From the sequence record MZ617140.1: 411 nucleotides of DNA, one strand, 5' to 3'. The notes under the pieces are model-generated. The model made no database searches. It was given only the letters and a program-made list of their open reading frames with translations, and had not been told where the DNA came from. Position 1 is the first letter of the stretch; each line of letters starts with the position of its first letter. The DNA comes from a phage. A program made the position numbers and the translations under genes. Shown here piece by piece: positions 1-411 of this stretch.

Positions 1-8
1 AGCAGTGA

Positions 9-411
9 TACATTGATGGTCTGCTGACTGCCGATGTGATGATTTTCGACATTGAAGACGCGATGAACCACTATGACGTGGCTGGCGAATACTCCAATCA
101 GTTGGGTGAAGCTCTGGCTATCGCTGCTGATGGTGCGGTTCTGGCTGAAATGGCTCTCCTGTGTAACCTCCCGGCTGCATCCAACGAGAACATTGCCGGT
201 CTGGGCACTGCGTCAGTGCTTGAAGTTGGTACTAAAGCCGACCTGAACACTCCGGCTAAGCTGGGTGAAGCAATCATCGGCCAACTGACCATTGCTCGTG
301 CGAAGCTGACCTCCAACTACGTTCCTGCTGGCGACCGTTACTTCTACACCACGCCGGACAACTACTCTGCAATCCTCGCGGCTCTAATGCCCAACGCCGC
401 CAACTACGCGA
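9..411 (+). CDS. 10: Major capsid protein, T7 gp10-like (HK97-fold); internal fragment that runs past the 3' edge of the window, with its 5' continuity broken by stops at 6-8 (frame 3) and 14-16 (frame 2)
   Basis: Seen in sequence: + frame 3 has TGA at 6-8 and is then open from 9 to 410 (134 codons), translating YIDGLLTADVMIFDIEDAMNHYDVAGEYSNQLGEALAIAADGAVLAEMALLCNLPAASNENIAGLGTASVLEVGTKADLNTPAKLGEAIIGQLTIARAKLTSNYVPAGDRYFYTTPDNYSAILAALMPNAANYA. Established knowledge, from memory and not a database search: this aligns with T7 gp10 ...TIDGLLTADVLIYDIEDAMNHYDVRSEYTSQLGESLAMAADGAVLAEIAGLCNVESKYNENIEGLGTATVIE...KEIIAALTKARAALTKNYVPAADRVFYCDPDSYSAILAALMPNAANYA with a single 1-residue gap, and long identical blocks (IDGLLTADV, DIEDAMNHYDV, AADGAVLAE, YSAILAALMPNAANYA). 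No start codon with a ribosome-binding site lies inside the window, as expected for an internal gene fragment. Confidence 0.93.

Follow-up and report, generated by a model that had tools for sequence, protein, structure and literature searches.

The break in the capsid reading frame at the 5′ edge of the window (the whole stretch of 411 nt that was analysed, which is the entire source sequence; sequence further upstream is absent from the record) is almost certainly the product of garbled base-calling, and neither a real mutation nor a recoding signal. The window is very probably a read from a PCR product of a K1F-like coliphage, generated with the T7-fw and T7-rev primers, in which the first 11 bases were miscalled. 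We established the primer identity and the amplicon geometry; the anomalies are limited to positions 1-11, and the site is intact in the relatives. The original prediction had listed three causes of the break (an inactivating frameshift in a defective or decaying phage copy, an error in sequencing or assembly, or a site of ribosomal frameshifting) and chosen none of them; sequencing error is now strongly favoured, and a decaying phage and programmed frameshifting are unsupported. The window is made up of the following parts:

Positions 1-11, plus strand: putative garbled read start, AGCAGTGATAC where intact relatives have AAGTGATTACC (edit distance of 4 over 11 nt).
Positions 12-384, plus strand: genuine phage sequence, internal to a Kayfunavirus major capsid gene (366/373 nt identical to Baskent_phicoli_1).
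Positions 385-410, minus strand: copy of the T7-rev primer, CGCGTAGTTGGCGGCRTTNGGCATNA (exact match to the degenerate CODEHOP primer).
Position 411, plus strand: extra terminal A (G at this position in every tail tabulated, from 75 relatives).

Three-frame translation put the first stops at positions 25 (frame 1), 14 (frame 2), and 6 (frame 3), so that a TGA does occur within the first 27 nt of each forward frame, as had been claimed from the sequence. Frame 3 is open from position 9 to 411, and its sole stop is the TGA at 6-8; the stops at 14-16 (frame 2) and 25-27 (frame 1) are of the kind that chance produces in non-coding frames. The capsid homology was correctly placed in frame 3 from position 12 (IDGLLTADV...NAANYA), where the translation reads IDGLLTADVMIFDIEDAMNHYDV...LMPNAANYA.

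We searched the window against 50,697 phage records with megablast and obtained 225 matches, 217 of which cover at least 80% of the window; all of them fall on the major capsid gene of Autographiviridae, led by Kayfunavirus (K1F-like) coliphages at about 96-97% identity. The closest relatives are Kayfunavirus phages (92-98% nucleotide identity), and not T7 itself, whose protein had been used for comparison. Positions 12-384 correspond to residues 94-217 of gp10A plus the first base of codon 218, in frame 3, and share 97.3-98.1% nucleotide identity with gene 10A of Baskent_phicoli_1 (PP766721), PE3-1 (NC_024379), and JSS1 (KX689784); protein identity to these three over residues 94-217 is 100% (124 of 124 amino acids, for the non-primer part at 12-383). 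Compared with the complete Kayfunavirus gene, the window lacks the first 93 codons and anything past codon 226; it opens with 11 garbled nt and closes with 27 nt that consist of primer and the added A. The IDGLL block starts at residue 94 of the 349-residue capsid protein of Escherichia phage Baskent_phicoli_1; the expectation that the homologue has about 90 further N-terminal residues before the window therefore holds, with 93 residues missing upstream.

From position 12 onward the window differs from Baskent_phicoli_1 at 13 positions, all synonymous, and contains zero indels; within positions 12-384 there are seven substitutions, all seven synonymous, and no indel in 373 nt. Together with the complete protein identity, these seven synonymous differences indicate, as far as sequence comparison goes, ongoing purifying selection. 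The marks of a pseudogene or decaying remnant were sought and not found in the window: there are no non-synonymous changes, no further indels, and no other stop in frame 3. Complete E. coli genomes (n = 5,426) and plasmids (n = 72,556) gave no match to the window, and we therefore regard it as a lytic-phage gene and not a resident remnant. The window-specific interior sequence GGCGAATACTCCAATCAGTTGGGTGAAGC had no exact match in viral, metagenome, or genome contigs.

The 3′ end of the window is not phage sequence. The last 28 nt hold six of the 13 synonymous differences from Baskent_phicoli_1, and several codon choices there are rare or absent among the 75 tabulated relatives (CTA, GCC for the first alanine, and the terminal GCG-A in none; CCC in one), which made us suspect a primer-derived sequence. 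A primer pair for the major capsid gene of T7-like phages, T7-fw and T7-rev, both of CODEHOP design, is given in Table 2 of Born et al. (2019, Arch Virol 164:819, PMC6394723). T7-rev matches positions 385-410 exactly on the minus strand, whereas none of 200 shuffles matched, and its sequence is found in none of the 84 natural relatives (80 loci from IMG/VR and four GenBank loci); the primer, and not the phage, is therefore the source of these 26 nt. Against natural templates T7-rev has four mismatches, all in its 5′ consensus clamp, and the clamp as it appears in the window, GCC GCC AAC TAC GCG, is likewise absent from all 84 relatives. The primer origin also explains why the 3′ 29 nt of the window have no exact match in viral contigs. 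The A at position 411 is most likely a non-templated 3′ A of the kind that Taq-type polymerases add, either where the amplicon ends or at the end of a run-off read; KAPA Taq was used on phage plaques in the study that lists these primers (PMC6394723). Once the primer-derived differences are removed, the true divergence from Baskent_phicoli_1 is 7/373 (1.9%), not 3.2%.

The 5′ end of the window fits the same amplicon. In the four relatives in which we examined the placement of T7-fw (Baskent_phicoli_1, PE3-1, Peacock, and LM33_P1), the last base of the primer (the A of GAR-A) lies immediately before the equivalent of window position 1; against Kayfunavirus templates T7-fw has five mismatches, which are confined to its 5′ consensus clamp. 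The primer sites fall at 1469-1499 (T7-fw) and 1884-1909 (T7-rev) on L001. In the relatives the amplicon measures 441 bp, of which the forward primer accounts for 31 and the remaining stretch for 410; the window has exactly the length of that remaining stretch, plus the A. It thus shares with the T7-MCP amplicon of PMC6394723 the T7-rev sequence at its 3′ end, its start at the T7-fw site, and the predicted length. The T7-fw sequence itself is absent from the window, while T7-rev is fully present; trimming of T7-fw, or its use as the sequencing primer, would account for its absence, and a missing forward primer combined with a complete reverse primer is characteristic of a read that runs in one direction from the forward primer. 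That the read was produced by Sanger chemistry, with T7-fw as the sequencing primer, is the probable arrangement. When a PCR product is sequenced by the Sanger method from its own forward primer, the first bases are notoriously poorly resolved, and bases that are read from the very first position after the primer are unusual; the exact length match may for that reason be partly coincidental.

To place the break we used pairwise alignment with free end gaps, in place of MAFFT, which misplaced the gap at the edge. Megablast aligned window positions 4-406 with 405 nt of the relatives, leaving the window 2 nt short. In the pairwise alignment, the relatives read GAG AAA GTG ATT ACC ATT GAT where the window has AGCAGTGATACATTGAT: ATT ACC ATT of the relatives is opposed by AT-A-C ATT, with one T of TT and one C of CC absent, and the first three bases of the window (AGC) do not align cleanly to the relatives. 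An extra GC offsets the two missing bases when the lesion is measured from the end of T7-fw, from which the expected sequence is AAGTGATTACCATTGATGG and the observed one AGCAGTGATACATTGATGG (19 nt each). A small indel near position 11, with upstream homology shifted into frame 2, had been proposed; the frame break, the shift, and the net loss of 2 nt are upheld, but a contiguous loss within the threonine codon is not. The alignment to the closest intact capsid gene, which had been suggested as a check, gave the net loss as two separate single-base gaps.

The upstream homology in frame 2 is real at the nucleotide level, as had been tentatively proposed: window positions 4-9, AGTGAT, are the A-GTG-AT of AAA GTG ATT in the relatives, displaced by 2 nt. 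Among random 11-mers with the composition of the window, only 0.6% share such a 6-mer and 1.3% come within an edit distance of 4, and the homology is therefore not coincidental. The equivalent of positions 1-11 in intact relatives lies directly 3′ of the T7-fw site; around it the 84 relatives encode K-H-T-E-K-V/T-I-T/N followed by I-D-G-L-L. In all 84 the frame stays open over the 90 preceding codons and through the site itself, without a single indel. The edits in the window are clustered, with four events in positions 1-11 against seven substitutions and no indels in positions 12-384 (Fisher p = 1e-4 for all events and 7e-4 for indels). This clustering, directly beside the primer, points to base-calling error. 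The edge sequence AGTGATACATTGATGGTCTGCTGAC had no exact match in viral, metagenome, or genome contigs, and no longer contig with upstream context was found there.

We propose the following course of events. A PCR product would have been made from a K1F-like coliphage with the degenerate T7-fw and T7-rev primers, and the window would be a single read of it, or a deposited sequence derived from one read. Primed at or with T7-fw, such a read would start directly after the primer, cross the capsid fragment, copy the incorporated T7-rev, and end in the non-templated A. In its poorly resolved first 11 bases, a GC would have been called spuriously and a T of TT and a C of CC skipped; these errors would give rise to the TGA at 6-8 in frame 3 and place the upstream homology in frame 2. 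The capsid gene of the phage itself would then be intact, and the peptide expected across the site is EKVITIDGLLTADVMIFDIEDAMNHYDVAGEYSNQLGEALAIAADGAVLAEMALLCNLPAASNENIAGLGTASVLEVGTK, which includes VITIDGLL.

Two other readings of the first 11 positions are improbable, to about the same degree. According to one, codons 92-93 of the major capsid gene in the template contain a real frameshift (net −2 nt), and the gene is defective or decaying. The shift is present in the sequence as given, and the homology does continue in frame 2. However, the phage cannot do without its major capsid protein, and the template presumably formed plaques; downstream, codons 94-217 retain the complete protein identity and the exclusively synonymous differences described above; and the searched E. 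coli genomes and plasmids hold no prophage or plasmid copy. The lesion consists of at least four edits within 11 nt beside a primer, which does not look like a single event, its counterpart is seen in 0 of the 84 relatives, and the opposite end of the window is of proven technical origin. A sceptic could still take the window to be isolate L3 and read a capsid defect into the fact that this phage could not be propagated to high titre (PMC6394723).

This assignment to L3 is doubtful. The isolates' PCR products were sequenced in that study and their partial MCP sequences deposited, and the only T7-type isolate, L3 (MK163344), was reported as 100% identical in amino acids to LM33_P1 (PMC6394723), whereas the window is identical to LM33_P1 at 130 of 133 amino acids, with three differences (L/I, N/D, and T/K). 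Another laboratory may have produced the window with these primers, or the reported figure of 100% may be approximate. A second paper used these primers and reports neither sequencing nor deposition; among the papers searched, the primer sequence is printed in no further one.

The other reading, no more probable, is that positions 1-11 are foreign, for example an adaptor, vector, or barcode remnant, or a chimeric junction. In its favour, the AGC at 1-3 matches nothing in the relatives, and linker bases are often kept at the ends of sequences. Against it, AGTGAT-A-C is the relatives' AGTGATTACC minus two bases, a similarity that arises in only about 1% of random 11-mers, and the length from the end of the forward primer is exactly that of an uninterrupted capsid sequence. 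Common adaptors (the SMART IIA oligo and 454 MID4) resemble these positions only in part, whereas the capsid homology is statistically supported.

It is much less probable again that the template truly has a scrambled stretch of 11 nt in an essential capsid gene and was nevertheless plaque-forming; this would call for either an unprecedented +1/−2 recoding at CAU-UGA in a T7-family capsid mRNA or a co-infecting helper.

The least probable reading of all, that a programmed ribosomal frameshift (+1 or −2) is required here for the full-length capsid protein, is effectively refuted by the amplicon evidence: its sole points are that frames 2 and 3 overlap without a stop at 9-13 and that T7-family capsid genes frameshift elsewhere, whereas the known event in this family is a −1 shift that lies beyond the window, at the 3′ end of gene 10; 84 of 84 relatives read straight through the site; direct reading of positions 9-16 reveals no +1 motif competent for re-pairing, and at the sole +1 candidate, CAU-UGA, tRNA-His cannot re-pair on AUU and, by comparison with prfB-type sites, no Shine-Dalgarno-like stimulator lies upstream; the window has no Rfam match; and the shifted product would be V-I-H-D-G, which loses a conserved residue relative to V-I-T-I-D-G. 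The gp10B frameshift of T7-like phages affects the same gene family and also changes frame, but it takes place about 120 codons beyond the 3′ end of the window, where 10A ends, and is a −1 shift on a slippery sequence that is conserved among relatives, unlike the −2/+1 discontinuity in the window, which is found in none of the 84 relatives. The −1 frameshift of gene 10, which yields 10A and 10B (the major and minor capsid proteins), is annotated in PE3-1 (L003, 1232-2544) and in Peacock (L004, 1232-2544), and has no connection with the break at positions 1-11.

With a miscalled read start as the preferred reading, the record is not evidence for a frameshifted or decaying capsid gene, and its importance is one of data hygiene only. 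The first 11 nt should be trimmed and the last 27 nt (primer plus added A) masked; left in place, the latter inflate the apparent divergence, because six of the 13 synonymous differences are primer-derived. Deposited sequences in which T7-fw and T7-rev were left in carry artificial substitutions from the clamps (five from the forward primer and four from the reverse primer). More generally, short stand-alone windows can be amplicons in which both ends are technical sequence, and frame breaks a few bases from an edge should be compared with published primer sets before they are given a biological reading.

The window also contains an ORF of 72 amino acids antisense to the capsid gene (positions 98-316, minus strand, TTG start); an open frame opposite a gene that is GC-rich and codon-biased, it is almost certainly spurious.
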